Assembly (NCBI GenBank): GCA_965248755.1
Contig: OZ252149.1
Location: 4,252,314 to 4,316,313 of the forward strand
DNA: 64,000 bases
Source: Candidatus Latescibacterota bacterium
GTDB lineage: Bacteria > Latescibacterota > CBDEFO01
Direction: 5' to 3'
Below the pieces are notes generated by a model. That model was not told where the DNA came from, did not search any database, and worked only from the letters and a program-made list of their open reading frames with translations. Below are positions 4,022 through 59,366 of this stretch, one piece after another (positions within the stretch are counted from its first letter, which is position 1; each line of letters opens with the position of its first letter). The position numbers and the translations under genes were made by a program.

Positions 4022-4915
4022 TTAGTTGGAGAAAGTTGACTTCATGCGGCCCCAGGTGTCAGCTTCGACCGATGTTGCAGGTACCCAGATGCTGGAATCA
4101 AAGGGGGCCAGGAGATAGTCGACGCAGTTGTCGGCATGATTGTCCAATCTTGTGGCCCCGCTGTTCGTCCAGAAGCCGTTGTAGCCCCCAACTTCGAGAT
4201 CGTCATCGTCCATAACAGCAAAGCCTATTCCGATGATGGCCCCCTCTTCATAGGTATGTATTATGCTATCATCTACACTATTAAAATCTATATCGTCAAA
4301 TCCCATGAAGTATGTCTCCACATTCAGCGTGCCCGGTCCACCAATTACACCAGCAAAGGTCCAGGTAAGGTCGGCATAAGGAGGCAATCCTGCCCATGCG
4401 GCCGCTCCCCAAAACCAGATGGGATTCTCTCTGTTCAGAAAATAGTGATAGTTTTGCGCCTGAGCTGAGTTGTACCTGTCGGGATCCAGATCGAGATCTT
4501 GCATGACCTGGTACTGTCCTCCGCTGTGGTCAGCATCGATGACCCACTCGATCATCTCCCGAATGTCCACCCCTGCGAAGGAAAGAGAGACATCGTCGTA
4601 CCTATCTTCCATTGTATATATCAGGTTAGTCACCGGACTCCATCCTACGATTATCCGTTCGGCAAGGTTAGAGGAGTCCGGATCCCCCAGGCCTCTGACA
4701 GTCTCTATCAGATCGTCATGCGTCACCCAGAACTCTGAGGGAACGTTAGCCCACTCGCTTAGATCGCTGTCTACTTCAATGTTCTGGAACTCATCGGTGC
4801 CAATCGGCACCTGGACAGCAACGAAGTTCCTATCCGACCTCAAATGAGCAGAACCCGTACTTATAGCAAAAAGAACAAATCCCAGGGCTGTAAATATCGC
4901 AAATATTGTCTTCAT
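4022..4915 (-). CDS. secreted hypothetical protein
   Basis: 297 aa; N-terminal signal peptide MKTIFAIFTALGFVLFAISTGSA; acidic, Trp-rich; function not recognisable. Confidence 0.5.
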   Translation of the reverse strand: MKTIFAIFTALGFVLFAISTGSAHLRSDRNFVAVQVPIGTDEFQNIEVDSDLSEWANVPSEFWVTHDDLIETVRGLGDPDSSNLAERIIVGWSPVTNLIYTMEDRYDDVSLSFAGVDIREMIEWVIDADHSGGQYQVMQDLDLDPDRYNSAQAQNYHYFLNRENPIWFWGAAAWAGLPPYADLTWTFAGVIGGPGTLNVETYFMGFDDIDFNSVDDSIIHTYEEGAIIGIGFAVMDDDDLEVGGYNGFWTNSGATRLDNHADNCVDYLLAPFDSSIWVPATSVEADTWGRMKSTFSN

Positions 4916-4953
4916 GGCGCTATCCTTTCATTGTGAATAATTAGACTCCGAAA

Positions 4954-7900
4954 TTATTGTGTCCTTCCGAAGTTATCCAGAAAAAGGACAAAGTCAGAAA
5001 GACCGATCTCTCCATTGCCGTCTAAATCAAATATAGAATTGGCTGAAGTGGTCGTTGTCCCGAACGCATCTAGAAACAGGACAAAGTCGGCAAGGCCTAC
5101 TTCATTGTTCCCATCGAAATCTGCTGCAAGGTCTGGGGGAACAGCAGATATATCAGAGAGATTCAACAACACTGATACATTATCGCTGTTCCAATTAGCC
5201 ACAGCCAGGTCATTTGTCTCATCGCCATCTAAATCTGAAATAAATACGGAATGGGGACCGTCTCCAGCATCAAAGTCCAGCTTATCTTCGAATGTCCCAT
5301 CTCCTTTATTCAAGAATACTGACACATTATCGCTGAAAGAATTAGCGACAACCATGTCATTATCCTCATCACCATCTAAATCCGCGATGAAAACTGAGCG
5401 GGGAAAACTTCCGGCGTCGTAGTCTATCTTAGGTGCAAATGTCCCATCGCCATGGTTCAACAACACAGATGCGTTGTCGTTGAAAAAATTTGCCACAGCT
5501 ATGTCATTATCTCCATCAGCATCTACATCCGAAACGAAAACGGATATGGGACCATTCCCAGTGGGATAGTCCACCTTGTCTGCAAATGTCTCATCTCCAT
5601 TATTCATCAGCACTGATACGTTGTGGCTGGACGTATTAGCTACAGTCAGATCATTATCTCCATCCCCATCGAGATCCGAAGCGAAAATCGAATGAGGACC
5701 AGCGCCAGCGGCGTAGTCGCTCCTATCTGGAAATATTCCATCTCCTTTATTCAGCAACACTGACACACTATTGCTGAGCTGATTTGCCACAGCTAAATCA
5801 TTATCTCCATCGCTATCTATATCCGAACTATAAACCGATATAGGACCATCACCGGCAGCATAATCTATCTTAGGCGCAAATGTGCCATCGCCATTATTCA
5901 ACAGTATTGATACATTGTCGCTGCTGAAATTAGCTACAGCTAAATCGTTATCCCCATCGCCATCTAAATCACCAATGAATACTGATTGAGGAACATCTCC
6001 AGCGGGATAGTCTATCTTGGGCGCAAACTTCCCGTCTCCATCATTAAGTAGCACAGAAACAATATCATTGCTCAGATTAGCTACAGCTAAATCGTTATCC
6101 CCATCGCCATCTAAATCTCCACTGAATACTGATTCCGGTTTTTCCCCGGTGGCGTAGTCAGTCGGAAGTCCGAAAAAGACAAAAGCAAACGCAAATCCAT
6201 TCTCAAGTGTGTCTGCCTTACCGTCAGCATTTGCAACTATCACATCGACAGTACCGACAGGGTGTGCGGGAGGCAGAGCGGTAATTCTATTGCTGGCCAC
6301 TACGACTACATCTATGGCTGCCATATCCCCGAAAGTGACAGTCGCTCCGATCCCGAAATTACTCCCCGTAATCGTCACAAGCGTACCGCCCGATTCTGAG
6401 CCGACACCGGGCCTGATAGATGTCACAACAAGAGGGGGAGGAACAATAAACTCAAAGGCGTTAAAGAGCGTGTCTGTCTGACCGTCTGGATATGTGAGTA
6501 TCACATCCACAGTACCAACAGGATGACCGGGAGTCAGAGCGGTAATTCTATTGCTGGCCACTACGACTACATCTGTGGCTGCCATATCCCCGAAAGTTAC
6601 AGTCGCTCCGATCCGGAAATTACTCCCTGTTATCGTCACGGACGTACCGCCCAATTCTAGGCCGGAAGTGGGACTGATAGATGTTACAACAGGAGGAGGA
6701 GGAACAATAAACTCAAATCCGTTAAAGAGTGTGTCTGTCTGACCGTCGGGATTTGTTACTATCACATCGACAGTACCGAGAGGATGAGCAGGAGTCACAG
6801 CCCTAATAGCAAGGGAGGATAGTACGGCTACGTCTATGCCTGCCATATCCCCGAAAGTAACGGTCGATCCGATCCGGAAAGTACTCCCTGTAATCGTCAC
6901 AGGCGTACCGCCCGATTCTGAGCCGACACCGGGCCTGATAGATGTCACAACAAGAGGTCCAGTAAGGACAAACTCAAAGCCACTAAAGAGCGTATCTGCC
7001 TGACCGTCGGGATTTGTTACTATCACATCCACAATACCGAGAGGATGAGCAGGAGTCTTGGCAGTAATAATACCCAGAAGTCCTACAGCTACATTTGTGG
7101 CTGCCATATCGCCGAAAGTAAGAGTCGCTCCACTCTGGAAATTGCTCCCCGTTATCGTCACAGGCATACCGCCCAATTCCGTGCCAGAGGTAGGACTAAT
7201 AGATGTCACAACTGGAGAAAGCGGCACATTAGACCGATTCAACAACACTGATACACCGTTGAGATGAGCCGTAACCAGGTCATTATCTCCATCCCCATCT
7301 AAATCTGCAATGAAGACTGATATGGAACCATCCCCAGCGGTGTAGTCCACCTTAGGTGCGAATGTACCATCTCCATTATTCAACAACACTGACACATTAG
7401 CGCTTTCCAAATTAGCCACAGCAAGGTCATTATCCCTATCACCATCTAAATCTGCAATGAAGACTGATATGGAACGATCCCCAGCGATGTAGTCCACCTT
7501 AGGTGCAAATGTACCATCTCCATTGTTCAATAGCACTGACACAATACCGGGCCTGCTACTAAAGCCTCTCGCATTAGCCACAGCAAGGTCATTATCTCCA
7601 TCTCCATCTAAATCCGCACTGAATACTGACCTGGGATCTTCCGTTGCGTGATAGTCCACCTTAGGTGCAAATGTACCATCCCCATTATTCATCAACACTG
7701 ATACAGTATTGCCGGGACGTCCACTAGCCACAGTCAAGTCATTATCTCCATCCCCATCTAAATCTGCACTGAAGACTGAATTGGAACCAGACTCAGTGGT
7801 ATAGTCCACTTTGTCTGCAAATGTCCCGTCTCCATTATTGAACAGTACTGATACAGTACCCACCACATTAGCCACAGCCAGATCATTATCCCCATCCCCA

Positions 7901-8634
7901 TCTAAATCAACACTGAAAACTGATTGGGGACTATCCCCAGCGGGATAGTCTACCCTAGGTGCAAATGTTCCATTTCCATTATTCATCAACACTGATATAC
8001 TACCGATGTCAACAAATGAAAATAAAGCAGAATTAGCCACAGCCAGGTCATTATCCCCATCTCCATCTAAATCTGCACTGAATACTGAATTGGGAACACG
8101 CCCAGTGGGATAGTCCACTTTAGGTGCAAATGTACCATCTCCATTATTCATCAAGACTGATACAGTGCTGTCGGGGGTGGGGGTGAAACCCCCGAAACCC
8201 CCATTGGCCACAGCCAGGTCATTATCTCCATCTCCATCTAAATCCACGCTGAATACTGACGAGGGTTTATGCCCAGCGGGATAGCTTGTCGGAAGTCCGA
8301 AAAGGGTAAAAAGAAACTCAAATCCATTCTTAAGTGTGTCTGCCTGACCGTCGGGATTTGTGACTATCACGTCCACAGTGTCAGCAGGATGAGCGGGACT
8401 CACAGCTCCAATAGCGAAGGAGAATTTACGGTTTACATCTGTGGCCGCACGATCTCCGAAAGTGACAGTCACTCCGCTTTGGAAATTGCTCCCTCTTATG
8501 CCCACAGCCGTGCGCACGAATTCCGGTCCGGAACTGGGAGTAATAGATGTAACGACAGGAGGTTCCTGTGCATAGGCAGTCGCATTCAAAGCGTACAGCA
8601 GTGCCAGCGCAGTGTAGAGTATGGTTAATTTCAT
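4954..8634 (-). CDS. giant secreted surface protein: FG-GAP/VCBS repeats + four IPT/TIG domains + C-terminal dockerin-like module
   Basis: 1226 aa; signal peptide MKLTILYTALALLYALNATAYA; more than 15 repeats of the type SVFSADLDGDGDNDLAVAN...SVLLNNGDGTFAPKVDY; four modules VVTSISPTSG...TITGSNF...TFGD...VTNPDGQ (IPT/TIG-like); dockerin-like tail DFDGNNEVGLADFVLFLDAFG...DLDGNGEIGLSDFVLFLDNFG. Confidence 0.85.
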   Translation of the reverse strand: MKLTILYTALALLYALNATAYAQEPPVVTSITPSSGPEFVRTAVGIRGSNFQSGVTVTFGDRAATDVNRKFSFAIGAVSPAHPADTVDVIVTNPDGQADTLKNGFEFLFTLFGLPTSYPAGHKPSSVFSVDLDGDGDNDLAVANGGFGGFTPTPDSTVSVLMNNGDGTFAPKVDYPTGRVPNSVFSADLDGDGDNDLAVANSALFSFVDIGSISVLMNNGNGTFAPRVDYPAGDSPQSVFSVDLDGDGDNDLAVANVVGTVSVLFNNGDGTFADKVDYTTESGSNSVFSADLDGDGDNDLTVASGRPGNTVSVLMNNGDGTFAPKVDYHATEDPRSVFSADLDGDGDNDLAVANARGFSSRPGIVSVLLNNGDGTFAPKVDYIAGDRSISVFIADLDGDRDNDLAVANLESANVSVLLNNGDGTFAPKVDYTAGDGSISVFIADLDGDGDNDLVTAHLNGVSVLLNRSNVPLSPVVTSISPTSGTELGGMPVTITGSNFQSGATLTFGDMAATNVAVGLLGIITAKTPAHPLGIVDVIVTNPDGQADTLFSGFEFVLTGPLVVTSIRPGVGSESGGTPVTITGSTFRIGSTVTFGDMAGIDVAVLSSLAIRAVTPAHPLGTVDVIVTNPDGQTDTLFNGFEFIVPPPPVVTSISPTSGLELGGTSVTITGSNFRIGATVTFGDMAATDVVVVASNRITALTPGHPVGTVDVILTYPDGQTDTLFNAFEFIVPPPLVVTSIRPGVGSESGGTLVTITGSNFGIGATVTFGDMAAIDVVVVASNRITALPPAHPVGTVDVIVANADGKADTLENGFAFAFVFFGLPTDYATGEKPESVFSGDLDGDGDNDLAVANLSNDIVSVLLNDGDGKFAPKIDYPAGDVPQSVFIGDLDGDGDNDLAVANFSSDNVSILLNNGDGTFAPKIDYAAGDGPISVYSSDIDSDGDNDLAVANQLSNSVSVLLNKGDGIFPDRSDYAAGAGPHSIFASDLDGDGDNDLTVANTSSHNVSVLMNNGDETFADKVDYPTGNGPISVFVSDVDADGDNDIAVANFFNDNASVLLNHGDGTFAPKIDYDAGSFPRSVFIADLDGDEDNDMVVANSFSDNVSVFLNKGDGTFEDKLDFDAGDGPHSVFISDLDGDETNDLAVANWNSDNVSVLLNLSDISAVPPDLAADFDGNNEVGLADFVLFLDAFGTTTTSANSIFDLDGNGEIGLSDFVLFLDNFGRTQ

Positions 8635-8688
8635 TTTAGATCCCCCCTCAATTTTTGGTCGATCCGGTATAACTGCTCAGAAGCGGCT

Positions 8689-8880
8689 TCATAGAAAAGA
8701 AATTATAATATATGTAAGCAACGCTAACACCAAAAATCCGATCACGATTCTTATGACGAACGCTCCGATTTTCATCGCTATCCACAGAAGGACAAGGACT
8801 GCTATCGCGGCTATTATGATTTCTACTTGCGTGAGTTCGCCTGTGGAGAATCTTTCGACTATCGTATCGAGAAGCCCCAC
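8689..8880 (-). CDS. small two-helix membrane protein (hypothetical)
   Basis: 63 aa; GTG start preceded by AAGGAGGA about 8 nt upstream; two hydrophobic helices. Confidence 0.4.
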   Translation of the reverse strand: MGLLDTIVERFSTGELTQVEIIIAAIAVLVLLWIAMKIGAFVIRIVIGFLVLALLTYIIISFL

Positions 8881-9463
8881 TTTGAAGGATCCTCCTTACT
8901 TTCTTATTGACTTTATCCCAAGGTATATCTATATTACTCCTTCGTTTCGGCAGAATATAATCAAGTTTCTTTTCAAAGTCAAGCGGATTTAGTCAACGCA
9001 AAACAGTCGGGGAATTTTGATAAATGAAGCATCATCAACAGCAAACAACGTTAAGCTCCTCATCGCAGACGTGGATGAAGTCCCGACCCCACGCAGCAAA
9101 GACGATACATTGTTGGTACTAAGGGCATGTAGGCCATGTACAGAAGAAATTCAACTCCAAGGACGGAAGTGGGATTTTATTTCTGAGAGAACTCGCAAAG
9201 CTCGAGGCTATGCTTTTCTCCCAGGATGGCACGCAAGTTATCTCAAAAAAAGCAGAATGGCTAAATATACGAGGGCTTCATCAGGGAGTGGAGCACAAAG
9301 TCTCGTATGAAGAAGGTCGGATTCTCGGTCGCAGTCCATGACGTTGTTACAGCCGTAAGACAGATCGTCCGCTATGTGACCTCGCGCTCGTGTAGCAGAT
9401 GGAGCCTTCTGCGAGGTCTGTGAGATAATACTCAAAGCCAGAGGCGTAGGCCTAACGTGAGCA

Positions 9464-10273
9464 TTGCTGGCATTTGATCGTAGTTCACAGGAATCAGATC
9501 TAGAGATGACAATTGGTTATGTAATAAAAGGTGCGCTTAAGAATCTGAGACATCATAAGATCGGGAAATGTAATATATGTGGCAACTTCACAGTCTTTAT
9601 CTGCACAGACTTGATGACAGCGACCAACAACATGTACTGCCTTTTCTGCGTCAGCTCATCCCGGAAAAGACATGTTGCAAAAATGATCATTGAAGAGGTT
9701 ATTCAGGGTATCTCCTCTATCTCCAAGATTCCGAAAGGTAAGGATATCAAGATTTACAATACAGATGTAGGTGAATCATTTTATAGAGTGTTACATAAGC
9801 ACGAGTCATATATTTGCTCCGGTCTGTTCCCTGATGTTGAACCGGGGACTCAGATTAGGAAGAGGGTATTTTGCCAAAACATAGAGAATTTGACATTCCA
9901 GAACGATACTTTTGAGCTGGTAATAAGCGAAGATGTCTTTGAGCATGTAAGAGATCACGAAAAGGGATTTCGAGAGATTTGTCGTGTATTGAAAGTCGGT
10001 GGTTATCATATTTTTACAGTTCCCTGCTATTTCGATAGACCTAGCATCGCTTATGTTGATACCTCTGGCGACGAGGATGTCCATATTCACCCACCGCGGT
10101 ACCACGGTGATAAAATCCGGGGCAAGATACTGGCTTATAGGATGTTTGGGATCGATATTTACGATCTTCTCAAATCTATCGGCTTCGAAACGAAAGTGAA
10201 TTTTCCCAGATATGTGGATCGAAAGTACGGGATTTTTGATAGTCATGTATTCATCTCTAAGAAATTGGGTTAG
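9464..10273 (+). CDS. SAM-dependent methyltransferase with N-terminal Cys-rich (zinc-ribbon-like) segment
   Basis: Class I methyltransferase-like core (VISEDVFEHVRDHEKGFREICRVLKVGGYHIFTVP); N-terminal CNICG...CLFC; true start may be the internal MTIGYV. Confidence 0.6.
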   Translation: MLAFDRSSQESDLEMTIGYVIKGALKNLRHHKIGKCNICGNFTVFICTDLMTATNNMYCLFCVSSSRKRHVAKMIIEEVIQGISSISKIPKGKDIKIYNTDVGESFYRVLHKHESYICSGLFPDVEPGTQIRKRVFCQNIENLTFQNDTFELVISEDVFEHVRDHEKGFREICRVLKVGGYHIFTVPCYFDRPSIAYVDTSGDEDVHIHPPRYHGDKIRGKILAYRMFGIDIYDLLKSIGFETKVNFPRYVDRKYGIFDSHVFISKKLG

Positions 10274-10375
10274 CATCGCGTTCTAGCGATCTCTCTTGGA
10301 GTTGACTCAAATGACTTCGGGATTTTAGATAAACATGAACTGTAATTAAGCGGTTGTGATTTCAAGAGTGAACTT

Positions 10376-11245
10376 GTGATACTTCAGATACTGATATCCA
10401 TGCGGCCCAGGCAGTGGATTAAGAACTTCTTCGTACTGGCGGCCCTGGTCTTTTCAAAGAATCTCCTCGATACCGATTCCCTGTACAAGAGCCTTGAAGC
10501 CTTTGGACTTTTCTGTCTCATTTCAAGTTCTGTATATATAATCAACGACATCCTCGATCTGGAAAAGGATAAAAGACATCCTGAAAAAAGAAAAAGGCCC
10601 TTGGCCGCCGGGAAGATGAGCGTCCCGACAGCTTGGGCCGCGGCTGTCACAATGTTGTCCCTTTCCCTATTACTTTCCTTTTGGCTTAAAACATCTTTCG
10701 GAGCCGTAAGCTCTGTATACTTGGTGCTCAACCTTGCGTATTCTGTCTACCTTAAGCACATAGTTATCGTAGATGTTATGATGGTAGCCTTCGGATTTCT
10801 GCTGAGAGCTGTTGCAGGAGCTGTCGTCATAAATGTTGATATATCATCCTGGTTTATGCTGTGCACCGTGCTTTTGGCGCTCTTTTTAGGGTTCGTCAAG
10901 AGGAGACACGAGCTTGTTATCCTCAAGGAAGGCGCATCAGATCACAGAAAGTCGCTCGAAGAATACAGCTCCCTGTTCCTCGATCAGATGATAGCCGTCG
11001 TCACCTCTGCCACTTTAATTTGCTACGCCCTCTACACCATGTCGCCTGAGGTCGTACGCAAACTCGGAACGGAGCGTCTGGACCTGACCGTTCCCTTTGT
11101 CCTCTACGGAATCTTGAGATACCTATATCTGGCCTACGAAAAGAGCGAAGGTGGTAATCCCACTACGACCATCTTACACGATGGTCCGCTTCTGATAGAC
11201 CTGGGACTCTGGCTCTTGACTTTGGTGCTTATCCTCTACACTTAG
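10376..11245 (+). CDS. UbiA-family prenyltransferase, decaprenyl-phosphate phosphoribosyltransferase-like
   Basis: 289 aa polytopic membrane protein; N-terminal RPRQWIKNFFVLAALVFS and Asp-rich YIINDILDLEKDKRH motif typical of the UbiA/DPPR-synthase family. Confidence 0.75.
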   Translation: MILQILISMRPRQWIKNFFVLAALVFSKNLLDTDSLYKSLEAFGLFCLISSSVYIINDILDLEKDKRHPEKRKRPLAAGKMSVPTAWAAAVTMLSLSLLLSFWLKTSFGAVSSVYLVLNLAYSVYLKHIVIVDVMMVAFGFLLRAVAGAVVINVDISSWFMLCTVLLALFLGFVKRRHELVILKEGASDHRKSLEEYSSLFLDQMIAVVTSATLICYALYTMSPEVVRKLGTERLDLTVPFVLYGILRYLYLAYEKSEGGNPTTTILHDGPLLIDLGLWLLTLVLILYT

Positions 11246-12605
11246 CAAGTAGCAGCATCTCTTCCCGAAAAGAAGTCAGGTTACTTTGTGTTCTTCGCGC
11301 CTTGACGCTATATCCTGTTCAACCTGGCGCGGTAGCAATGCCCACAGCGCCCGTGAGACCTGCATGACTTAGATACGTTTCGGATAACCTCAGTATAACC
11401 GAAAGCCGATCAAAAGCCTCCAGACCTGATGCGTATTGTCCTCTTTGGGCCCTGCTCCCTTTTCAAATCTGCGAGAGAACTTGTACACTTTCCCCTGAAG
11501 ATGGAGGTAAAACCTGTCACCTTCCTTGCGGCGTTTTATGTCGACTCCGATGTAATCTAATCCTTCCTCCATCCTGTCTATGCCCTCGTCTCCCGAAAAA
11601 GGCACAAGTGCCTCAGCCCTTTCACGGTCGTATTCAAAACCCACCCTAATGTCATTCCAGATCTGATAAGTCGTCCTGAAGAAAGCGTCTCTTTCTTCAT
11701 TCCTGAAGCCCTGCTCTTCTGTGCCTCTCCCGACGTGGTGTCCTACAATCCAATCCCTGTAGATATAGGGGAAGTTGCCAGCGACATCCCCGCTGTGCGC
11801 ATACCAGCCGTTCGGCGCCGAGATCCCTCTCCTCAAAAACCTACTTTCGACGACCTGAAATAGCCTTGCTAACTCTATCCTCAGATCCGCCCTTCCGTCC
11901 CTAAATAGGTCTCCAAGGTACGCACCTATCAAATAAGCACTATTGCGGCCCCAAGGTATTACCCTCCTTGCAAACCCCGGGTACCACACATCGTCTCCGG
12001 CTGTTAAACCATAGAGCTTAACGTAATCGTATAGATATACACTCCCCCCCACCTCAGCGATGGCATTGCCTCTTATATCCCCTGCTGTCTGATTAAGAAT
12101 GCTCTCTATGGGGTTCTCCTTAATGACGCCCCCGACGCTTGCTCCTACAGCGATCTTGTTTAGACCGACATTCCCCATATCACATTCATGAGGGATTGTA
12201 TTTCGATACAATCTTGTTTGTGAATGAATATTACCACTTTTACATTTTTCAACAAGTATTTTTTTCAATTAATTATAGTATTTTCCTCTGAATTATCACT
12301 TTCTTTGTGTTTAAATCCTCCAAATCGGAGACACCTCTCCATCGACTCACAAAAAAATGTGGCAGTTTAAACAGAGTAATATCGCAATCGTTCAATCCGG
12401 GATAATATTTCGGTAAATAAGCTCTTGTCTATCCCAACCTCAGCCATCTGAAACGTGATGTATCTGCTGTGCCTGACAAGCTTCGCGCCAATCTTGATCA
12501 ATGTCACGAGGAGGCTGCCAAGAGACCCCGGGATAATATCAGTGTTTGATTCTCCCTGGAAGAACCAACCGCCTTAGCCCGATTAATTCATAAACTTGCT
12601 GGAGT

Positions 12606-12628
12606 TATTGCGAGGAGCAAAGCGGTCC
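12606..12628. repeat. palindromic element copy (TCCCCGATTGAGTCTATCGGGGA)
   Basis: 7-8 bp perfect stem with 7-nt loop; member of a dispersed family (see findings). Confidence 0.8.
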
Positions 12629-12714
12629 CCGATTGAGTCTATCGGGGAAGCAATCTCAAGGTTTTATAGTGGTCTCCTATGAGAGTCGGAGAGTATTACA
12701 TCTACCACAAGTAA

Positions 12715-12738
12715 CCCCCGATTAAATCTATCGGGGGG
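12715..12738. repeat. palindromic element copy (CCCCCGATTAAATCTATCGGGGGG)
   Basis: Same stem and loop architecture, 109 bp from the previous copy in direct orientation. Confidence 0.8.
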
Positions 12739-12933
12739 ATTGCTTCGCCTTCGGCTTGCAATGACACCGAAGGTGGTTAAACGGCATAACTATAATATAA
12801 TACAATCCCTTAATTAATACACGGACTTTTTTTGTGAATTATTCGCCTCAGAAAGTTTCCAAGATTATAGGCCAGAAGAAATAACCAGAGCCTCACCTGA
12901 TCCCTTTCTGAACCCACATAGCATTGATATCTG

Positions 12934-13317
12934 TCAGGTGATATCTGACAGGCTGTTGAGATTTTCCAACTGAGTCAGTATCTCCGTTTCAAAACGTCCT
13001 ATCGTGTTGGCGCTGGCGGCGTGCTTGCCTTTGCCCTTCTTTCCGGTAATCGCTCGCATTACTGGGTCAACTGGTAAAGGATGAGCATTATTCACAGCTT
13101 CATATCCTGCAAGACGACTGTAAATCGATTGACGCATCAGTGTGGGCATATCATGTTGGATATTAAGTCCTCTTCGTAGATCGTTAAAAAGACTAGATAC
13201 TGAGTCGAATAATCCTAAAACGTCATCGAGGTCACGATACGCAAGAAGACCACCATCAGATGTCACCTTGGCACGATCAAATTCAAGCTTAATAGTTCCA
13301 TCAAATCCCATATTCAT
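12934..13317 (-). pseudogene. IS1380-family transposase, N-terminal fragment
   Basis: 127-aa ORF LEFDRAKVTSDGGLLAYRDLDDVLGL...YSRLAGYEAVNNA matches the conserved N-terminus of IS4/IS1380-type DDE transposases; the catalytic core is missing. Confidence 0.6.
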
Positions 13318-14278
13318 CCTTTCACCCTCTGGATGATCAATACTTATCCGCCATTTCCGAGTCTTATTTATTGTAATCTAACATGTTCTGGTGACTTTGA
13401 CAACCGTTTTTCGGGTCTAATATGAGGAATGGTGGTTAGATATGTCCACTGGAGCCTTGCGGTAATAAGGCTTACCTCATCTCCGGTTCGACTTTGAAGA
13501 CCGTCGATAATAGAGGTGCTCCCGGACACTGGACCCAAACTATGTTCTATCTGAATGGACCTAAGAGGAGGAGCGTTGTCTGTCAACACAAAATTTCCAT
13601 GGTAGCCCGGTCCCCACCATTGTCTGCTCTTCCCAAATAAAAAATCGGTCCTCAGAAACCTTACTTTAAGATAGACCTCGTCTAACTTTGCTACGGTTCT
13701 CTCGTCCTTTCCGAAAAGGTAAGGAGATGCAAAAAAGGCAGCATAAGGCGTAATACTTGCTCCTACATCTATTTTGGCCCCGATGCTGCCGCCCTTGGAA
13801 AAGTGATAAGGCTCAATATTATCCACATTTTTAACTGCCGCTCTGGTAGCTCCAAAGAGGGTTAACTCCCCCTTTATGTAAGGGATAAAAAGTTTTTTCC
13901 TTTTTCCCCGCTCTGCCTTTGCTATATCCTCCAATTCGAGTCGAAACTCGTGCTCAAGGTCTAAGACCCATCTTTCTACCTCCAAAGACAATGCCGGCTT
14001 ACTCTTTGACAGTCCATAAACTAAAAGAGCGGCCTCATAACGTCCGATGGGTTTGCTCTCGGACGGAGGACGCTCTAAAAGTCCCTTTGTGTTTAACCTT
14101 TCCAGGATACCGTACGCCCAGTGATGCAGGGGCAAAGCGACAGATGCTCTCCTTTCCTGGAACGGAGTCCACGTTCTACCTTGTGCCCAAACCTTACCGG
14201 CGTTAGCAGTACTGAGGTTCCCAAGCAGTATCGGAGAACTTTTTGGGGAAAAGAGGATTAGGGCAACATACGCACAAC

Positions 14279-16113
14279 TTAAGAACTTCCACTTTGATGA
14301 TTTCTGCAAAACTCCTGAAGTCCCTTCAAAAGTCCCTCTCTGTCTACCCTATCGACGTAGTCGATAATGTTTTGGATCTTCTTGTCCAGCCCATCGATCC
14401 GATTAGAAGACGTGATCCTTAGTATCTTATCGTGCACAGTAGGCTCTACCTTTTCGTCTCCGTTCCAAAGTTCTTCGTGCATCTTTTCTCCGAGCATAAG
14501 TCCTGTGAAGACTATCTGTATATCCTTGTCCACTTCCAGTCCGGAAAGATGTATCATGTCCTTTGCCAGATCCAATATTTTGATCGGGCGTCCCATGTTC
14601 AATATGAATATATCTCCCCTATTTCCTATCGCCGCTGCCTCCAATACCAACTGTGCCGCCTCTGGGATTGTCATAAAGTAGCGGGCTATATCAGGGTGAG
14701 ATACTGTAACGGGGCCTCCTTCTGCTATCTGTTTCCTGAATATAGGGATGACACTTCCGTCGCTGTCCAGGACGTTGCCGAATCTGACTGTGACAAACTT
14801 GGCCCTGCTTTGTCTGCCGAAATCCTGGATGAAGAACTCCGCCAGCTTCTTGGATACACCCATAACTCCCACCGGATTAACTGCCTTGTCTGTTGAGATA
14901 TTAACAAAGGTCTCCACACCGCCTTCCTCTGACAGCTGTGCCGCAGCTATAGTCCCAGCTAAATTGTTCTTTATGGCTTCCTCAGGGTTCAACTCCATCA
15001 AAAGCACGTGCTTATGAGCCGCAGCGTGAAAGACGATCTGTGGCTTGTGTTCGCCTATCATGGCCCTGAACTTTGCCCGGTCGTTAATATCTCCTATTAT
15101 CTGGACAATCTCCGTATCTCTTGCAATCTTTTCAAATTCAATTCCCAAAAAGTGCATATTGTTCTCAGCTTTGTCATAGAGCACAATTTTGAAGGGATTA
15201 TAAGCAGAAGTTGGCGGCATATCTCCGCACCGATAGAGCCCGCTGCTCCGGTTACTAATACAGTTTTATTTGCTATAAACGAGCGTAACTTCTTAGTATC
15301 TAAATTCACCTCCTCTCTACCTAAAAGGTCCTCAACCTTGACGTCCCTGAGTTGATTTATAGGAGATTTTCCATTTACCATCTCGGAGGATGCGGGTGCG
15401 ATCTTGAAATCGATGTTGCATTCTGAGCATATATCTACGATCTCCCTGATCTCTTGTCCACTCGCATCTGGAACCGCCATGATCACTTGCCTGATCTGTC
15501 TGCTTTGAATGATGTTTTTCATCTTCTCCACCCCGCCTAAAATCTCGATTCAGTGAATCCGCATGCCCACATTGGCGCCCGAATTGTCTATGAATCCCTC
15601 GATCTTATACTGCTCCCGATGGTTATTCTCCACCTCCCTGACGATCAGCTCTGCTGTGCTTCCTATGCCGTATATTAGGACAGGTGCGGCAGATCCTCGC
15701 GGTCTCAGCACAGACTCCAAACTCGACCGGAATCTGATAACAAATCTGCTACCCCCGATAAGCAGGATCATAGACATCCAGTCCAGCAAGAAGACACGCC
15801 TTGGGAAGTCCACCGTGCGCAGGACGTATACCAAAGCGATCAGAACTATACTCCCTATCGTAATACTCTTGCATATCTGAACTAAGTCCTCAACACTTGC
15901 ATATTTCCATAGTCTGCGATAGAGATTCGTAACTGAGAATATGCCTATCCTCACTGGGATCGCCAATACCACCATAAGCATCAGGTTATACCTCTGAGCT
16001 TCGGGGAATGAGAAGTTAGAGATCACCCCGAACGATAGGAAAACCGAAATTGCTATAGACAGCAAGTCTGCTACTATCAGGAGGATTTGGTGTCTTTTTA
16101 ATCTTATGTTCAC
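14279..16113 (-). pseudogene. capD: CapD/PglF/WbpM-type UDP-sugar 4,6-dehydratase, disrupted by two frameshifts
   Basis: Three consecutive ORFs (15550..16293, 15097..15531, 14279..15220) together encode an N-terminal membrane domain, a linker with VLVTGAAGSIGAEICRQLL NAD-binding motif, and the epimerase/dehydratase domain; frame changes near 15545 and 15100-15230. Confidence 0.7.
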
Positions 16114-16138
16114 CGATTCGTGTCCCAGAATTTCAGCT

Positions 16139-17263
16139 TCAGAACAAAGCTTTTTTATTCTTACGTATTGCCTCTTTGAGTCTTTTGCACACGTAGTCAA
16201 TCTGTGCCTGGGATATATTTCCGAAGAAAGGCAGCGCCAGGACATATCTTGACGCCTCCTCACAGACTGGAAAATCTCCCACTTTATATCCAAACCTCTC
16301 CCTATAGAAGGGCTGAAGGTGTATAGGAGAAAAATAGGGTCGCGATTCTACACCATCTGCTCTCAAATCCCTCATAATTCCTTCTCTATCAACATTTGTA
16401 CTTAATCTTATTACATACACAAACCAGCTTATCTTCACACCCTTTGCCACATACTGAGTTCCTACTTCCTCTACATCTTTAAGGTTCTGATTGTACTTCT
16501 GTGCCGCCTCATCCCGCTTTGACAGCAATTCATCTATCCTTTCAAGTTGAGCCAGCCCCAGCGCTGAGCTCATCTCATCCAGGCGATAGTTAAATCCGAG
16601 TCTTTCGTGCTCAAGCCAACTTCCATTCTCCGAACGCCCCTGATTTCCCAGACTCCTCAAGAGCCTGGCTAATGCCTCATCATCAGTGACGACAACGCCC
16701 CCTTCTCCCATGGTCATCTGCTTGTTGGGATAGAAAGCAAAGACACCAGCCCTCCCGAAACTCCCCACGAGCTTGTCACCATACTTTGCTCCTGTTGCCT
16801 CACAGGCGTCCTCTACCACCTCCAGACTATGTTCTTGTGACAATTCCATAATAGCATCCATATCGCACGGATGTCCGAAGATGTGAACCGGAAGTATCGC
16901 CTTTGTCCTTTCTGTGATCGCCTCCTCTATCCTGCTTGGATCCATATTCAGAGTCAGAGGATCCACATCTACGAAGACCGGCTTGCCCCTGGCCATAAGG
17001 ATGCAGTTGCTCGAAGCCACGAAGCTGAACGGAGACGTAATCAGCTCATCGCCTGGTCCTATCCCGATTCCTATCAAACAAAGATGCAGTCCACCAGTCC
17101 CACTCGAGGCTCCTACGGCGAACCTGCTCCCTATGTACTCTGCAAACTTACGCTCAAAATCCCTCAGCTTCGGACCCAGAGAAAGCCGCCCCGAGCGGAG
17201 GACTTCATTTACCGATCTGATCTCGAGTTCGCCTATATCGGGCGAGGAAAGGGGCACTTGCAT
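16139..17263 (-). CDS. DegT/DnrJ/EryC1/StrS-family PLP-dependent sugar aminotransferase
   Basis: 374 aa; family-typical layout; directly upstream of capD on the same strand. Confidence 0.85.
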   Translation of the reverse strand: MQVPLSSPDIGELEIRSVNEVLRSGRLSLGPKLRDFERKFAEYIGSRFAVGASSGTGGLHLCLIGIGIGPGDELITSPFSFVASSNCILMARGKPVFVDVDPLTLNMDPSRIEEAITERTKAILPVHIFGHPCDMDAIMELSQEHSLEVVEDACEATGAKYGDKLVGSFGRAGVFAFYPNKQMTMGEGGVVVTDDEALARLLRSLGNQGRSENGSWLEHERLGFNYRLDEMSSALGLAQLERIDELLSKRDEAAQKYNQNLKDVEEVGTQYVAKGVKISWFVYVIRLSTNVDREGIMRDLRADGVESRPYFSPIHLQPFYRERFGYKVGDFPVCEEASRYVLALPFFGNISQAQIDYVCKRLKEAIRKNKKALF

Positions 17264-17322
17264 AGCAAAATATGGGTTGGACTAAACACCTTTACGTCCA
17301 GAGCGATTCTCTGATTGCTCTA

Positions 17323-18468
17323 TCAGATCGCAGATGATTTCAACTTCCGCGCTATAACTATAAGCCCTATTGTCTCCACAAAGATAAGACCCAGACCTAA
17401 CTCTATCGGTAGTTCGACTACAAAGAGCGCGGAAAGACCGAAGAAGAATCCCATCCCAGAGCAGATAAGAACTGTGTGCTCCTGGGAAAATCCCATATCA
17501 ATCAGCTTATCGTAGAAATGGCTTCGATCTCCTGAAAATATCGGCTTTCTGTTTGCTCTCCTTTGCACAACTGCCAGAAGCGTGTCGAAAATCGGCACGG
17601 TCACTACCAGAAGTGGTCCCAGGATCCACCTTAGATCGAATCTCTGCGACGGCAGGAGAAGGATCAGCATAAAGGCGCACATAAATCCCAAAAATAGACT
17701 CCCAGAGTCACCCATAAAGACGTCGGCAGGGTGCCAGTTGAAAAATAAAAATCCCAGGCAGATTCCCAAAAGACATAGGGATATAGCTATACCTATTGGA
17801 GACTCAGCCATGTAAGAAAGTAGCGCGAAGAATCCGAAGGCAATAGCAGACACCCCCCCTGCAAGTCCATCTATCCCATCCAGGAGATTCATAGCGTTGG
17901 AACTCCCCACTACATAGAGCACTACAAGAAGAACTCCCAAAAGTCCCAAAGGGATAACTTTTGTCATTCCGATCAACACAATTACAGCCGTTATCTGTCC
18001 CAAAAGCTTAGCAAAAGGTGAAATTCTCTTCATATCGTCAATAAGTCCTACTATAAAGATAACTCCTGACGACAAAATTGCTGTGATATAAATCACCAGA
18101 AAGTCCGAATTTAAATAATTAAATCGATATGCACCATATCCGACAACCGCAAATGTCAAAAACATAGCGATCCCTCCTGTTCTGGGGATCGGATAAGAGT
18201 GAACGTCCAACCTTCCCGGAGTATATACGATGTTCAATCTCTTTGCTGTCTCCTTTGCCAAAAAAGTTAAAGCTATAGATAGAGCAAGGCAGATCCAAAA
18301 TAGAGCCGCATTGACCTTGATTCCTGTCAACTCAAAGCTGGCCCCGACAAGCAGAGCAGCCCATAGTGGGAGACGAAGAAAACGCCTGGAAGATAAATTT
18401 TCCGTCCTTTGTGTAAGACTTTTGCTCATAACTGTGGAATCCAGACAAGACTGACGAAGATACCGCAA
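17323..18468 (-). CDS. polyprenyl-phosphate sugar-1-phosphate transferase (MraY/WecA/WbpL family)
   Basis: 381 aa, about 10 TM segments; motifs DDMKRISPFAKLLGQ and HPADVFMGDSGSLFLGF. Confidence 0.8.
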   Translation of the reverse strand: MRYLRQSCLDSTVMSKSLTQRTENLSSRRFLRLPLWAALLVGASFELTGIKVNAALFWICLALSIALTFLAKETAKRLNIVYTPGRLDVHSYPIPRTGGIAMFLTFAVVGYGAYRFNYLNSDFLVIYITAILSSGVIFIVGLIDDMKRISPFAKLLGQITAVIVLIGMTKVIPLGLLGVLLVVLYVVGSSNAMNLLDGIDGLAGGVSAIAFGFFALLSYMAESPIGIAISLCLLGICLGFLFFNWHPADVFMGDSGSLFLGFMCAFMLILLLPSQRFDLRWILGPLLVVTVPIFDTLLAVVQRRANRKPIFSGDRSHFYDKLIDMGFSQEHTVLICSGMGFFFGLSALFVVELPIELGLGLIFVETIGLIVIARKLKSSAI

Positions 18469-18504
18469 AGCCCAGCAGAAACGAGAATTAAAATATACGT
18501 TATT

Positions 18505-18957
18505 CTACGTCAAAACACAAGCATTATCCACATAAAAAAATGTGGAGAGGGAGGGATGTTTGATTGGCCATGCGATCACTGGCCCGCTGCACCAGAGAGT
18601 TAAGGGTCTGTCGAGATTTTCGGCGATCTCCAAAGGTTCTGGGGCAGAGGGAATCTTGAAGAGTTGGCAATACTCCTTGAGGAGGTCCACAACAATAACA
18701 TCAAGGGCTGTCGCTAATCTTCTCAGTGTCCTAATGGAAAAACTGCTGTCGGATTTCTCCCACTTCGTGATAACAGTCCTGTGAACGCCGACCTTCACCG
18801 CTAACTGATACTGTTTCAGCCCGCGCTCCTTGCGAATGTTTCTGAGGTTTTCTCCTACCGTCAAACTTGTCTTCTTTGCTAACGTATGGCTGTTCTGACA
18901 GGATGTCGGATACGTAAATAAAAAGGTAATGCAGTAGAAAACTTGCACCTGGTACAT
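18505..18957 (-). CDS. XRE-family helix-turn-helix transcriptional regulator
   Basis: HTH segment LRNIRKERGLKQYQLAVKVGVHRTVITKWEKS; start uncertain (ORF track extends to 18993). Confidence 0.6.
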   Translation of the reverse strand: MYQVQVFYCITFLFTYPTSCQNSHTLAKKTSLTVGENLRNIRKERGLKQYQLAVKVGVHRTVITKWEKSDSSFSIRTLRRLATALDVIVVDLLKEYCQLFKIPSAPEPLEIAENLDRPLTLWCSGPVIAWPIKHPSLSTFFYVDNACVLT

Positions 18958-18991
18958 TGACAATTTGTTGATCTGTAGCGATATTTGGGAC

Positions 18992-19776
18992 ATGAAAAAT
19001 TGCCCTCGCTGCAGGGGAAGAAAATTTTGGTTACTGAAGACTGGTCAGTTACGCTGTCGGAGGTGTAAATTGACTAGAAAGTTGACCTCCTCCTCCTGGG
19101 AGAAAACTCGAATGTCTCCGTACTGGAAGGGGAGGTTGGTTGAGTATTTTTGTCTTGGTGTTCCTGTTTACCGGTTGCGATTCCATGTTCCATACACGAG
19201 GAAGACTATGGAGCGCTGGTATCGGATCATTCGAAAGGAAATCTACCACCTCACCTTCAAGGAGCTTGAACTCCTTGAAGGTGAGGTGGAAATGGACGAA
19301 ACTCTCTTTGGTGGTAGAAGGCCTGGTAAGAGGGATTGGGGTGCTTTGGGCAAACAGATGGTCTTTGGGATCTATCAGAGAAAGGGTAAGGTGTTGACGT
19401 TTCCTATCTCGTCAAGGAGTCGTGACTCACTGTTGCCTCTTATTACCCAACACATCAAACCAGGGAGCTTATATTACACTGATGATTGGATAGCCTATGC
19501 CTCCCTTTCTATCAGTGGCAACCACGTGGTAGTGCCGAAAGAGAAGGGAATAGCTAGAGGAAGAGATCACCTTAATGGCGTGGAAGGTTTCTGGTCGTAT
19601 GCCAAACACTGGCTTTACCAGCGATCCCCGATTGATTCTATCGGGGAGGTGTTGACAAAAACTCCTTCCACCTTTACCTTAAGGAGATCGAGTGGTGCTT
19701 CAACCATCGCCACGAAAATCTCCTTCCACTTATAAGAAAGCTACTCGATCAACAAGCTGTCAAAGAGCTAAATTAG
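18992..19776 (+). pseudogene. IS1595-family transposase interrupted by a palindromic element
   Basis: N-terminal zinc ribbon CPRCRG...CRRC and DDE core with HLNGVEGFWSYAKHWLYQ; the family-typical C-terminus (KNSFHLYLKEIEWCFNHRHENLLPLIRKLL) is encoded in a different frame immediately after the palindrome at 19626-19648. Confidence 0.7.
19626..19648. repeat. palindromic element copy (TCCCCGATTGATTCTATCGGGGA) inside the IS1595 transposase gene
   Basis: Same family as 12606; sits exactly at the frame break. Confidence 0.8.
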
Positions 19777-19971
19777 TGCAACTTTAGTTATGCATTACCA
19801 ATAAAAATAACATATTTCTAGCGGCATTGGCAACTATTTTCTTGCACATGTAGAGATAATTTGTCATCTTGTGTGCCCAATATAGATTTTTTATTGCTTT
19901 TAACTCTAAAAAAGCTTATATTTTGACGTTGATTATCATCTGCCGATTTAACCTTAAAAGAGGCGTCCGTA

Positions 19972-26064: not shown

Positions 26065-27564
26065 ATGAACTACACAAAGAACATCGGTCTTGAGATACAT
26101 TGTCAACTCGACACGGAAAGCAAGCTGTTCTGCGAGTGTAGTGCCAGATATTTCCAGAAATACCAAAGGACAGGGACTTCCAAGATAAAACCAAATATGG
26201 AGATATGTCCTATCTGTCTCGGGTTTCCGGGGATACTCCCTGTTCCTAACTTTGAGGCGATAAGGCTCTGCGTTAAATTGTCTTTAGCCCTCAACTGCGT
26301 AATCTCAGAAGAAGTGATCTTCCACCGCAAGAGCTATACGTATCCAGATCTTCCAAAAAACTATCAGATCTCGCAGTTCAAAAACGCAATAGGCAGTAAC
26401 GGATACATGGACCTGGACCTGAATGGAGAGAATAAGAAAGTAACAATAACCGAAGTCCATCTGGAAGAGGATCCCGGAAAGCTCGAACATGAAAAAAGCG
26501 ACACGGGGATAGACTTCAACAGATGCGGCATACCGCTTGCGGAAATCGTCACTGACTACAGAGATATAACCACGTTCAGGGAGGCCCAGGCGTTTGTTCT
26601 AAAGCTCAGAGATATAGTCAGAGACACAGAAGTATCCAACGGAGATATGGAGAAAGGATCCTTACGGGTGGACATAAATATCTCCGTCCTCCCCCAAGAC
26701 GAAGGAAATTACGGCACCAAGACCGAGATCAAAAACCTGAACTCTATAAGAGCCGCAGGAGACGCTATTGACGCCGAATCTGAAAGACAGAGAAATCTCC
26801 TTGAATCAGGGGATAGAGTCAGACCGGTCACTTTAAGATGGGATGGTCACGGATTAAGCCTCCTCAGAGTTAAAGAAGAGGTCTCAGACTACAGATATTT
26901 TCCTGATCCTGACTTAGCCCCTATCAAATTAGACCTGGAACTTATAGAAGAGATAAAAAGCCAACTGCCGGAGGAAAGGGACGAGCTTTTCAGGCGACTT
27001 GTGGAAGAATATGCCTTGACGGAAGATCAGGCGGAAATCCTGATCTTCGAGAGGAGGCTTGCACGCTTCTTTGAACTTGGGGTCGCTGGGACAAAAGATG
27101 CGGAGCTTACTTATAACTTCCTTACATCCACGCTTCTTCCGAACCTTCAGAAGCGCAATTTGGAGCTTAAAGACGTTTCTTCTGAAAAGATAGCTCAATT
27201 CTTAAGGTACGTCAAAGATCACAACACTGATAAGACCCTTGTCCACCAGGCACTCAATCAGTCTATAGACCAAAAGACAGATCTTGTCGAGACTATAAAA
27301 GTAAAAGGCCTATCCTCCAAAAGAATAGGAACAGATGAGACCGAACGCATAGTGGATAAGACCATACAGAGTCTCAAGAAGGATGCCTCCGACGACAAGG
27401 GAAACGTAGTTGACAATGCCGTTGCGGAGTTTAAGGATATAGGGGAGTCCAAAGCCGTAAACGTTATAATAGGCGCCATAATGAGAGAATACGGCAGGAA
27501 GGTCGATCCCAAAGACGTAGGGAAATTGGTCAACCGGAAGATACAAGAGATGGTCGAAGCATAA
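26065..27564 (+). CDS. gatB: aspartyl/glutamyl-tRNA(Asn/Gln) amidotransferase subunit B
   Basis: 499 aa; N-terminal GLEIHCQLDT..., CPICLGFPGILPV and FHRKSYTYPDLPKNYQISQ motifs. Confidence 0.85.
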   Translation: MNYTKNIGLEIHCQLDTESKLFCECSARYFQKYQRTGTSKIKPNMEICPICLGFPGILPVPNFEAIRLCVKLSLALNCVISEEVIFHRKSYTYPDLPKNYQISQFKNAIGSNGYMDLDLNGENKKVTITEVHLEEDPGKLEHEKSDTGIDFNRCGIPLAEIVTDYRDITTFREAQAFVLKLRDIVRDTEVSNGDMEKGSLRVDINISVLPQDEGNYGTKTEIKNLNSIRAAGDAIDAESERQRNLLESGDRVRPVTLRWDGHGLSLLRVKEEVSDYRYFPDPDLAPIKLDLELIEEIKSQLPEERDELFRRLVEEYALTEDQAEILIFERRLARFFELGVAGTKDAELTYNFLTSTLLPNLQKRNLELKDVSSEKIAQFLRYVKDHNTDKTLVHQALNQSIDQKTDLVETIKVKGLSSKRIGTDETERIVDKTIQSLKKDASDDKGNVVDNAVAEFKDIGESKAVNVIIGAIMREYGRKVDPKDVGKLVNRKIQEMVEA

Positions 27565-59365: not shown

Positions 59366-59366
59366 T

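Follow-up and report, generated by a model that had tools for sequence, protein, structure and literature searches.

The window analysed here (64,000 nucleotides from a Candidatus Latescibacterota bacterium) carries a string of minus-strand genes coding for an XRE-family regulator, a WecA/WbpL-like transferase, a DegT-type aminotransferase, a CapD-type dehydratase and a Wzi-like protein, with insertion sequences (IS) ahead of and within the string (Table 1). Three successive minus-strand ORFs (15550–16293, 15097–15531 and 14279–15220) correspond to one Polysacc_synt_2 protein of the CapD/PglF/WbpM type, in keeping with a preliminary description of the locus that had recognised a dehydratase in three pieces. 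The gene, termed capD below, probably starts at GTG 16113, inside the first of these ORFs, and has no single uninterrupted frame of the usual ~600–650 codons.

Table 1. Features of the capD locus, with positions in the window.
Feature	Position	Strand	Evidence or comment
wzi-like outer-membrane capsule-assembly gene, C-terminal part	11390–12268	-	PF14052, profile 227–337/392, 29.1 bits, slightly below cut-off
Segment lost in five related contigs	11650–17802		6.15 kb; 1520-bp IS5-like element instead
Internally deleted IS1380-family remnant within wzi-like gene	12270–13367 (approximate ends)	-	Pfam DDE_Tnp_1_4, 4–113/435
IS1380 transposase N-terminus	12934–13317
wzi-like gene, N-terminal part	13368–14309	-	Pfam PF14052, profile 30–116/392, 48.2 bits
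capD/pglF/wbpM-type UDP-HexNAc 4,6-dehydratase, probable pseudogene	14279–16113	-	~611 codons once repaired
capD fragment 3	14279–15220	-	SDR catalytic domain without Gly-rich NAD motif; STDKAV (Thr-Asp-Lys) kept
capD fragment 2	15097–15531	-	Linker remainder and NAD-binding TGAAGSIG, then out-of-frame read-through to stop
capD lesion 2, 1-nt deletion site	15203–15210	-	8 nt where 9 are needed, Gln(caa) to Tyr(tat)
capD lesion 1, nonsense codon	15550–15552	-	In-frame TGA; presumed GGA(Gly)>TGA
capD fragment 1	15553–16113	-	N-terminal membrane segment and start of CoA_binding_3-like linker domain
DegT/PglE/PseC-type sugar aminotransferase, full length	16139–17263	-	Pfam PF01041, 2–359/360, E 3e-123
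GT4 WecA/WbpL-like polyprenyl-phosphate HexNAc-1-P transferase, full length	17323–18468	-	Pfam PF00953, 4–158/160; NCBIfam wecA-like
XRE-family HTH regulator, head of gene string	18505–18993	-	Pfam HTH_3
IS1595-family element, strain-specific insertion between XRE and ffh	18925–19799	+	NCBIfam transpos_IS1595, 83.7 bits
IS1595 transposase	18965–19735		Upstream of operon

The C-terminal ORF matches Pfam PF02719 over almost the whole profile (E 2.9e-95, positions 21–291/293), and fragment 2 contributes profile positions 1–27 only. Fragment 1 aligns with the N-termini of homologues; the N-terminal region of NCBIfam EPS_sugtrans matches residues 15–260 of the repaired protein, and residues 1–280 align with PF13727-bearing homologues, so that both the membrane segment and the CoA_binding_3-like linker are represented. 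The closest solved structure is Campylobacter jejuni PglF/WlaL (5BJU, E 2.5e-76). S407, T408, D409, K410 and A411 fall in invariant alignment columns and are all present in the window sequence; the catalytic Thr-Asp-Lys of PglF is reportedly T395/D396/K397.

PglF (WlaL) of C. jejuni, WbpM of Pseudomonas aeruginosa and Cap5D/Cap8D of Staphylococcus aureus are long, membrane-anchored UDP-GlcNAc 4,6-dehydratases of the same family (PF02719). Repaired CapD shares with them the membrane segment, the CoA_binding_3-like linker and an extended SDR domain with TGxxGxxG and STDKAV, and it is likewise accompanied by genes for a DegT/PglE-type aminotransferase and for a polyprenyl-phosphate sugar-phosphate transferase. 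Unlike these systems, capD is broken by a stop and a frameshift, its best homologue is only 46% identical and several of its near-invariant residues are odd; in contrast with PglF-type systems, moreover, no PglD-type acetyltransferase adjoins capD, and the initiating transferase is of the GT4 (WecA/WbpL) rather than the PglC type.

The aminotransferase and the transferase had been described as intact, and their Pfam matches bear this out (Table 1). All NCBIfam PseC/LegC/ArnB-like matches of DegT lie below the equivalog cut-offs, and its 90% cluster contains this genome alone. The first ~23 codons of the XRE ORF as listed lie within the end of the IS1595 element, and its homology to relatives ends at 18924. 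The N-terminal part of the wzi-like gene has a single weak match in the PDB, to Wzi (2YNK, E 0.015) via a QWWGPGY motif, and the assignment therefore leans mainly on Pfam.

A stop codon and a one-nucleotide deletion in capD

Two frameshifts had originally been held responsible for the split; in fact only the downstream break, at ~15203–15210, shifts the frame. Straight translation of the gene reads GMRIH*IEILGG across the TGA, and ORF2 lies in the same frame as ORF1. The corresponding column holds Gly in 102 of 120 homologues, and the upstream break is an apparent nonsense substitution that involves no frameshift. Being a base substitution, it does not belong to the indel-type errors.

At the second lesion the window reads caa-cttctgct-tat, for which ctg[g]ct is one possible repair, and there is no homopolymer. 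The frame of ORF2 ends in CRQLL and that of ORF3 resumes with AYNPFK (CRQLL–AYNP across the junction); the repaired CRQLLAYNPFKIVLYD aligns without gaps to the homologue pattern CRQVxxFxPxxLILxD. When homologues are searched against the locus by tblastn, two HSPs in two frames are returned, and repaired CapD aligns gap-free to 19 homologues across both break sites. The deletion lies eight codons past TGAAGSIG and throws the remainder of the catalytic domain into another frame. Because it parts the TGxxGxxG motif, which is no longer contiguous with the catalytic domain, from the remaining SDR domain, no fragment should be able to act as a dehydratase, and CapD function would be lost.

Could the gene nevertheless be read through, or work in pieces? 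The TGA might be decoded as Sec, Trp or Gly or be suppressed, with a -1 frameshift further on, or the fragments could reassemble or act apart, for example by reinitiation at GTG 15531 to give a soluble dehydratase. ORF2 does begin only 18 nt past the TGA with the frame unchanged, and soluble, N-terminally truncated WbpM and PglF are reportedly active in vitro, which means that the TGA alone need not have killed function. Against this, TGA is a normal stop in the window, where it terminates 14 of the 51 long ORFs, ATGA/GTGA overlaps among them. No SECIS-like hairpin follows the TGA (fold z = -0.95), Rfam gave no match, no suppressor tRNA occurs in the window, and the shift site has no X_XXY_YYZ slippery heptamer. 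On these grounds, TGA reassignment, selenocysteine, suppression by a tRNA and programmed -1 frameshifting were rejected. As for a functional split gene, the NAD motif is missing from fragment 3, while fragment 2 carries that motif without the rest of the Rossmann fold; furthermore, relatives have deleted the locus (see below) instead of keeping any recoding signals. Recoding or a functional split gene is accordingly regarded as highly improbable.

All 120 of the best homologues are single proteins (114 of 593–667 aa, five of 570–575 aa and one of 834 aa). Close orthologues were not found: among 5.8 billion proteins searched, none exceeds 46% identity (the best are 607–650 aa long), and in GTDB genomes none exceeds 42%, bar one partial segment at 50%. 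The ancestral codons are therefore proposed from distant homologues. Of 126 columns with a conservation of at least 95%, repaired CapD deviates from the consensus at 13, whereas the 120 homologues have a median of 1 such deviation and at most 10; HKHVPLME>HKHVLLME and GLRPGEK>GLMLGEK illustrate these changes, and the unusual residues at near-invariant columns include P371L, R540M and K181N. This excess may merely mirror the very long branch of the lineage, in which the best non-self match of GatB is just 37–42% identical. A collection of 15 billion proteins has no match to any capD fragment, although it does include the DegT, Ffh and GatB proteins encoded nearby on this contig; this is consistent with a pseudogene call by the depositor's pipeline. 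A second capD paralogue was not detected by tblastn within the 64-kb window.

Insertion sequences and deletion of the locus in relatives

The operon had been considered otherwise intact. However, the wzi-like gene downstream of capD is split by an IS1380-type remnant, whose NCBIfam IS1380 match (1–103/419) is below the cut-off. A 46-aa ORF at 12367–12507 is presumably the C-terminal tail of the transposase. No convincing terminal inverted repeats or target duplication were found for the remnant, and its ends are therefore approximate. At the other end of the string, an IS1595 element and the XRE regulator lie upstream of the operon, just as first described. The element is bounded by the inverted repeats GGTAATGCA/TGCATTACC and an 8-bp target duplication, AATAAAAA, and the empty site was found in the related contig L038.

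Five related contigs, ~93–97% identical to the window at the DNA level across long flanking blocks, have lost a segment that holds wzi, capD, degT and the 3′ half of wecA. In L038, L041 and L043, blastn blocks 8611–11649 and 17803–18924 border the IS5-like element that stands in place of the segment, and the gene order in L040 and L042 matches that of the other three. What the relatives retain of the string is the last 84 codons of the wzi-like gene (11390–11649) and the 5′ part of wecA (17803–18468), which is called there as a 208-aa ORF; their loci contain no match to capD, degT or the N-terminal part of wzi. The wecA part has a dN/dS of 0.13–0.33 against relatives, on just 7–8 differences and thus too short to inform, and the wzi-like tail, with 12–14 differences, is likewise too short for an informative dN/dS. 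Overall, the deletion in five contigs and the IS-disrupted wzi-like gene suggest that the locus is dispensable in this lineage.

Consensus accuracy and the distribution of lesions

Both capD lesions are read in the assembled consensus alone, and the main rival to a pseudogene is an error of that consensus: the organism itself would carry an undamaged capD, with the stop, the deletion or both arising as artefacts of long-read or metagenome assembly. The genome consists of one 4.54-Mb contig. Coverage tags in contig names (e.g. '_19x_l') point to long-read metagenome assembly for the relatives, and this genome was probably assembled in the same way; some of the low-coverage relatives do show broken genes, namely FG-GAP in L043, rimM (123 aa) in L039 and an IS5 transposase in L038. 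Single-base deletions are the commonest type of residual long-read error. Stop-making substitutions and deletions outside homopolymers, on the other hand, are unusual types of consensus error, and the capD lesions are one of each.

The rest of the window also speaks against a high error rate. Twenty-six of its genes (24.4 kb) have orthologues at >80% identity, to which they are colinear without a single stop or frameshift; ORF lengths of window genes equal those in relatives, and 7.5 kb of the window aligns to one relative with three gap positions only. Beyond capD, the only other point lesions in the window are one in wecB (CAG>TAG at 47199–47201, judged against orthologues in relatives) and two in IS256 copy A (GAG>TAG at 59215–59217 and a 1-nt deletion at ~58881, judged against a near-identical twin copy). 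Point lesions thus cluster in dispensable genes, capD, IS256 copy A and wecB. When five point lesions are placed at random over the 53 window genes, capD (1.8 kb) receives at least two of them with P ~0.01, which is hard to reconcile with a uniform error rate, and at most three genes are hit with P ~0.015. Finally, the locus is independently disrupted by IS elements and absent from relatives. Taken together, a consensus error is considered unlikely as the source of the capD lesions.

At the island at window positions 36550–37606, no remnants were found of AAA_15/DUF4276 genes seen in relatives.

Probable decay of a putative amino-sugar locus

The preliminary description had posed an inactive pathway against indel errors. 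This was the right pair of options, and the evidence leans towards an inactive pathway because of the stop substitution, the non-homopolymer deletion, the IS-split wzi, the deletion in relatives and the clean 24.4 kb of coding sequence. We hold with good, though not full, confidence that capD is a genuine pseudogene in a locus under loss; the likeliest reading is an unremarkable dead gene in a locus eroded by mobile elements.

The ancestral gene string would have been XRE–wecA/wbpL-like–degT–capD–wzi and, going by family membership, may have served to make a UDP-4-amino-4,6-dideoxy-HexNAc-type sugar. CapD is predicted to carry out the 4,6-dehydration of UDP-GlcNAc, DegT the transamination of the resulting 4-keto product and the GT4 enzyme the loading of the sugar-phosphate onto a lipid carrier, with the Wzi-like protein probably anchoring or assembling the polymer at the outer membrane. 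This pathway appears to be switched off and decaying in the present genome. A GGA>TGA substitution would have struck the linker domain of CapD, an IS1380-type insertion that later itself decayed would have split wzi, and an IS1595 copy would have landed ahead of the string. Sister strains seem to be further along, wzi–capD–degT and half of wecA having apparently gone via an IS5-associated deletion. If so, the open frames of degT and wecA probably reflect the short time available for them to decay.

Alternatively, degT and wecA could remain in use through another dehydratase elsewhere in the genome. A stronger version holds that the lesions in surface-glycan genes (capD, wzi and wecB) and the independent IS-mediated deletion of the operon in sister strains reflect repeated, selected loss of a surface polysaccharide, driven for instance by phage or predation, while degT and wecA serve another pathway via a second dehydratase; we think this quite unlikely.

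Decay of capD, the preferred reading, has a counterpart in the cap5 locus of S. aureus, where several independent disabling mutations have built up stepwise and capsule has been lost across the lineage (PMC4453534). In USA300/USA500, a single-base indel in cap5D, which lengthens a poly-A tract by one A, causes premature termination; complementation proved its effect (Boyle-Vavra et al. 2015, mBio, PMC4453534). The two cases share a capD-family gene disabled by a single-base indel and multiple lesions in one surface-polysaccharide locus. They differ in that the locus described here, known from its sequence, combines a nonsense codon and a non-homopolymer deletion with IS elements and outright deletion in relatives.

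For annotation, the three ORFs should be joined into a single entry and marked as a capD pseudogene with a nonsense codon and a frameshift. Metabolic reconstructions of this little-known lineage should not count the operon as a working amino-sugar pathway. The locus offers a snapshot of the stepwise loss of a surface-polysaccharide locus, with point lesions and IS elements in one strain and a full IS-associated deletion among the relatives. Loss of this kind is well known and raises no new question. The IS1380-split wzi, the IS1595 element upstream and the IS5-like replacement in relatives resemble the IS-mediated erosion of capsule and O-antigen loci elsewhere, with nothing unusual except the very deep-branching, uncultured lineage in which they occur.

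The broken dehydratase gene

Read from 16113 to 14279 on the minus strand, three successive ORFs make up capD, and the split of this gene noted earlier is real by ORF calls, Pfam and tblastn. The first ORF probably begins at a GTG at 16113, 25 nt past the degT stop. The Polysacc_synt_2 domain (PF02719, E 2.9e-95) is divided between the second ORF (positions 1-27) and the third (positions 21-291 of 293), and tblastn with three full-length homologues gave exactly two HSPs in two frames, which cover the whole protein, and no further capD match within the 64-kb window. This is therefore one gene of the CapD/PglF/WbpM type, some 611 codons long, with two breaks.

Both breaks had been taken for frameshifts in the preliminary description, which is correct for the second one only. 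The first is an in-frame TGA; the second ORF stays in the frame of the first, and the single-frame translation of 14279-16113 reads '...GANVGMRIH*IEILGGVEKMKNII...'. When 19 homologues are aligned, the TGA falls at the 'IHGVPVLG' column, which among 120 homologues holds Gly (102), Asp or Asn (12) or Glu, Ser, Gln or His (6); the simplest history would be a single G>T change from GGA to TGA. At the second break, 'GAEICRQLL' lies in the frame of the second ORF and 'AYNPFKIVLYD' in that of the third; the Gln and Tyr codons are 8 nt apart (cttctgct), one short of the 9 required. This is a 1-nt deletion: one restored base yields 'CRQLLAYNPFKIVLYD', gap-free against the consensus 'CRQVxxFxPxxLILxD'. 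The deletion lies 8 codons past the NAD-binding motif TGAAGSIG, so placed that the middle fragment keeps this motif and lacks the rest of the Rossmann fold, while the last keeps the catalytic STDKAV stretch and lacks TGAAGSIG.

Recoding, or a split gene that still functions, is very improbable. TGA closes 14 of 51 long ORFs, overlapping ATGA/GTGA junctions among them, and TGA recoding was rejected. Folding of the 81 nt that surround and follow the TGA is no more stable than that of shuffles (z = -0.95), an Rfam scan of the window returned one tRNA and nothing else, and tRNA-Arg(ACG) is the window's sole tRNA. A programmed frameshift was likewise dismissed, the deletion site having no X_XXY_YYZ slippery heptamer. 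Nor is that site a homopolymer.

Features of the window discussed here
Feature	Coordinates	Strand	Remarks
capD, first ORF	15550-16293	-	
capD, second ORF	15097-15531	-	
capD, third ORF	14279-15220	-	
capD TGA	15550-15552	-	
capD 8-nt gap	15210-15203	-	
DegT-type aminotransferase	16139-17263	-	profile 2-359/360; PseC/LegC/ArnB-like, below equivalog cut-offs
GT4 WecA/WbpL-like transferase	17323-18468	-	profile 4-158/160
XRE regulator	18505-18993	-	Pfam HTH_3
IS1595-family element	18925-19799		
wzi-like gene	11390-14309	-	split
wzi-like N part	13368-14309	-	PF14052 (Wzi) 30-116, 48.2 bits
wzi-like C part	11390-12268	-	PF14052 227-337, 29.1 bits, just under cut-off
IS1380 remnant	~12270-13367		internally deleted
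IS1380-family transposase N-terminus	12934-13317		DDE_Tnp_1_4 4-113/435
46-aa ORF	12367-12507		
Palindromic repeats	12578-12750		
GatB	26065-27564		
Strain-variable island	36550-37606		L044 counterpart 4057-5945
wecB	47085-48176	+	TAG at 47199-47201
IS256 copy A	~58020-59373	-	near-identical to copy B; TAG at 59215-59217, deletion at ~58881
IS256 copy B	~62264-63618	-	intact 415-aa transposase
Gene-poor segment	60375-62316		
tRNA-Arg(ACG)	60861-60938		
IS5-like piece	62097-62262		166 bp, 94% identity

The closest relatives of the repaired protein are 46% identical (Anoxybacter, Halanaerobiales, many MAGs), and the 120 listed homologues measure 593-667 aa (114), 570-575 aa (five) or 834 aa (one). 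Among solved structures, C. jejuni PglF/WlaL (5BJU, E 2.5e-76) is the nearest. Below threshold, NCBIfam matches PseB and FnlA in the SDR part and a polyprenyl glycosylphosphotransferase N-terminal region at residues 15-260, a pattern usual for long-form CapD/WbpM/PglF proteins. Going by family membership, the gene string would produce a UDP-4-amino-4,6-dideoxy-HexNAc-type sugar and initiate a lipid-linked glycan.

The repaired protein departs from consensus at 13 of 126 columns (at least 95% conserved in the 120 homologues, which themselves depart at a median of 1 and at most 10), including K181N, P371L (in HKHVPLME) and R540M (in GLRPGEK). These departures fit relaxed constraint, but are explained equally well by a long branch: the lineage is phylogenetically extremely isolated, and beyond its own 90% cluster GatB has a best match of only 37-42% identity (MAGs of Omnitrophota, WOR-3 and Krumholzibacteriota).

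Probable decay of the locus and its fate in relatives

Of an operon previously considered otherwise intact, the DegT and GT4 transferase genes do retain near-complete profiles; the wzi-like gene directly downstream of capD is split. Its joined sequence has a sole PDB match, Wzi 2YNK, via the QWWGPGY motif (E 0.015). The two halves flank an IS1380 remnant that lacks the middle of the transposase (the 46-aa ORF may be its C-terminal tail); the insertion that splits the gene is thus decayed in its turn. Within the remnant, CCCCGATTGAGTCTATCGGGG recurs as a 90% identical copy 89 nt off and a third partial copy; these palindromic repeats look like REP- or MITE-like hairpins.

Upstream lie the XRE regulator and the IS1595 copy, as initially reported. 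The element shows inverted repeats GGTAATGCA/TGCATTACC together with an 8-bp target duplication, AATAAAAA, and covers the first ~23 codons of the XRE ORF as listed; no relative carries it, and one shows the empty site. Because it is located between the XRE gene and ffh, it would likely sit in the promoter region of the XRE-wecA-degT-capD string.

Relatives were chosen via 90% clusters of window proteins (public collection) with members on other contigs. Around ffh, all five related contigs examined (L038, L040-L043) share the order methyltransferase, UbiA, 84-aa ORF, IS5-like transposase, 208-aa GT4 fragment, XRE and ffh; in L042 and L043 the XRE position holds only a 64-aa ORF without Pfam match. 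By blastn against L038, L041 and L043, window 8611-11649 and 17803-18924 form colinear blocks (93-99% identity) that flank a 1520-bp IS5-like element (L038 7173-8692, also in L040-L043; DUF772 and DDE_Tnp_1, 451-aa transposase). The relatives have therefore lost window 11650-17802, which holds capD and degT entire, the greater part of wzi and the 3′ half of wecA. Their loci contain no match to capD, degT, the wzi N part, IS1595, the IS1380 remnant or IS256, and DegT is alone in its 90% cluster. The locus is dispensable in this clade and is being lost via different routes. Against the relatives, the retained 5′ part of wecA (dN/dS 0.13-0.33, only 7-8 differences) and the wzi tail (85 codons, differing at 12-14 nt and 6-7 aa) are both too short to be informative.

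The IS5-like element is likewise present within the second glycan cluster of a further contig, L045.

Consensus error or genuine decay

An inactive pathway and indel errors were the right alternatives to pose from the outset. Assembly noise was gauged by tblastn of 30 genes called in two related contigs, L038 and L044, against the window: 26 (24,450 nt) are >80% identical, with a single stop-free HSP covering 90% or more, and a 7.5-kb block aligned with L044 has only 3 gap positions. The only orthologue-bearing window gene with an internal stop is wecB, encoding a UDP-GlcNAc 2-epimerase, where a TAG interrupts the conserved HTG[Q]HYD motif ('HTG*HYD'); two relatives (contigs at 88-91% nucleotide identity) have CAG in a 350-aa ORF. 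IS256 copy A differs from copy B by GAG>TAG, a 1-nt deletion and three other substitutions.

The window thus holds five point lesions in three genes, two each in capD and IS256 copy A and one in wecB; three are substitutions to stop, and neither deletion lies within a homopolymer run. All three genes are dispensable. Were the lesions scattered randomly among 53 genes (54.6 kb), the probability of three or fewer genes being hit would be ~0.015, and that of capD receiving at least two lesions ~0.01. Relaxed selection yields such a pattern and uniform consensus error does not, although the pattern is no substitute for read evidence; error behind one or both capD lesions is unlikely but carries some weight. 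We regard capD as quite probably a true pseudogene, in a surface-polysaccharide locus that is decaying and ridden with IS elements.

Capsule and O-antigen loci are commonly eroded by IS elements. In S. aureus USA300/USA500, an extra A in a poly-A tract inactivates cap5D, and further disabling mutations, in a promoter and in cap5E, arose stepwise in the same capsule locus; the effect was proven by complementation (PMC4453534). The locus described here would be another example, in an uncultured, deep-branching lineage.

Other observations in the window

IS256 copy A carries the same lesion types as capD. Of the window's three premature stops, two are G>T changes on the coding strand, here the minus strand (inferred in capD and observed in IS256 copy A), a sample too small for calling mutational bias. 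Besides the second glycan cluster, to which wecB belongs, the window encodes T9SS-type sorting domains, large FG-GAP/TIG proteins and a BpsA branched-polyamine synthase. At the strain-variable island, relatives carry an AAA_15 ATPase and DUF4276 gene pair, possibly a defence system, where the window has ~1 kb of unrelated sequence with short ORFs only and no remnants of these genes. The gene-poor segment around the tRNA gene otherwise holds only short ORFs and is flanked by the IS256 copies and the IS5-like piece, which adjoins IS256 copy B; it may be an integration hot spot.
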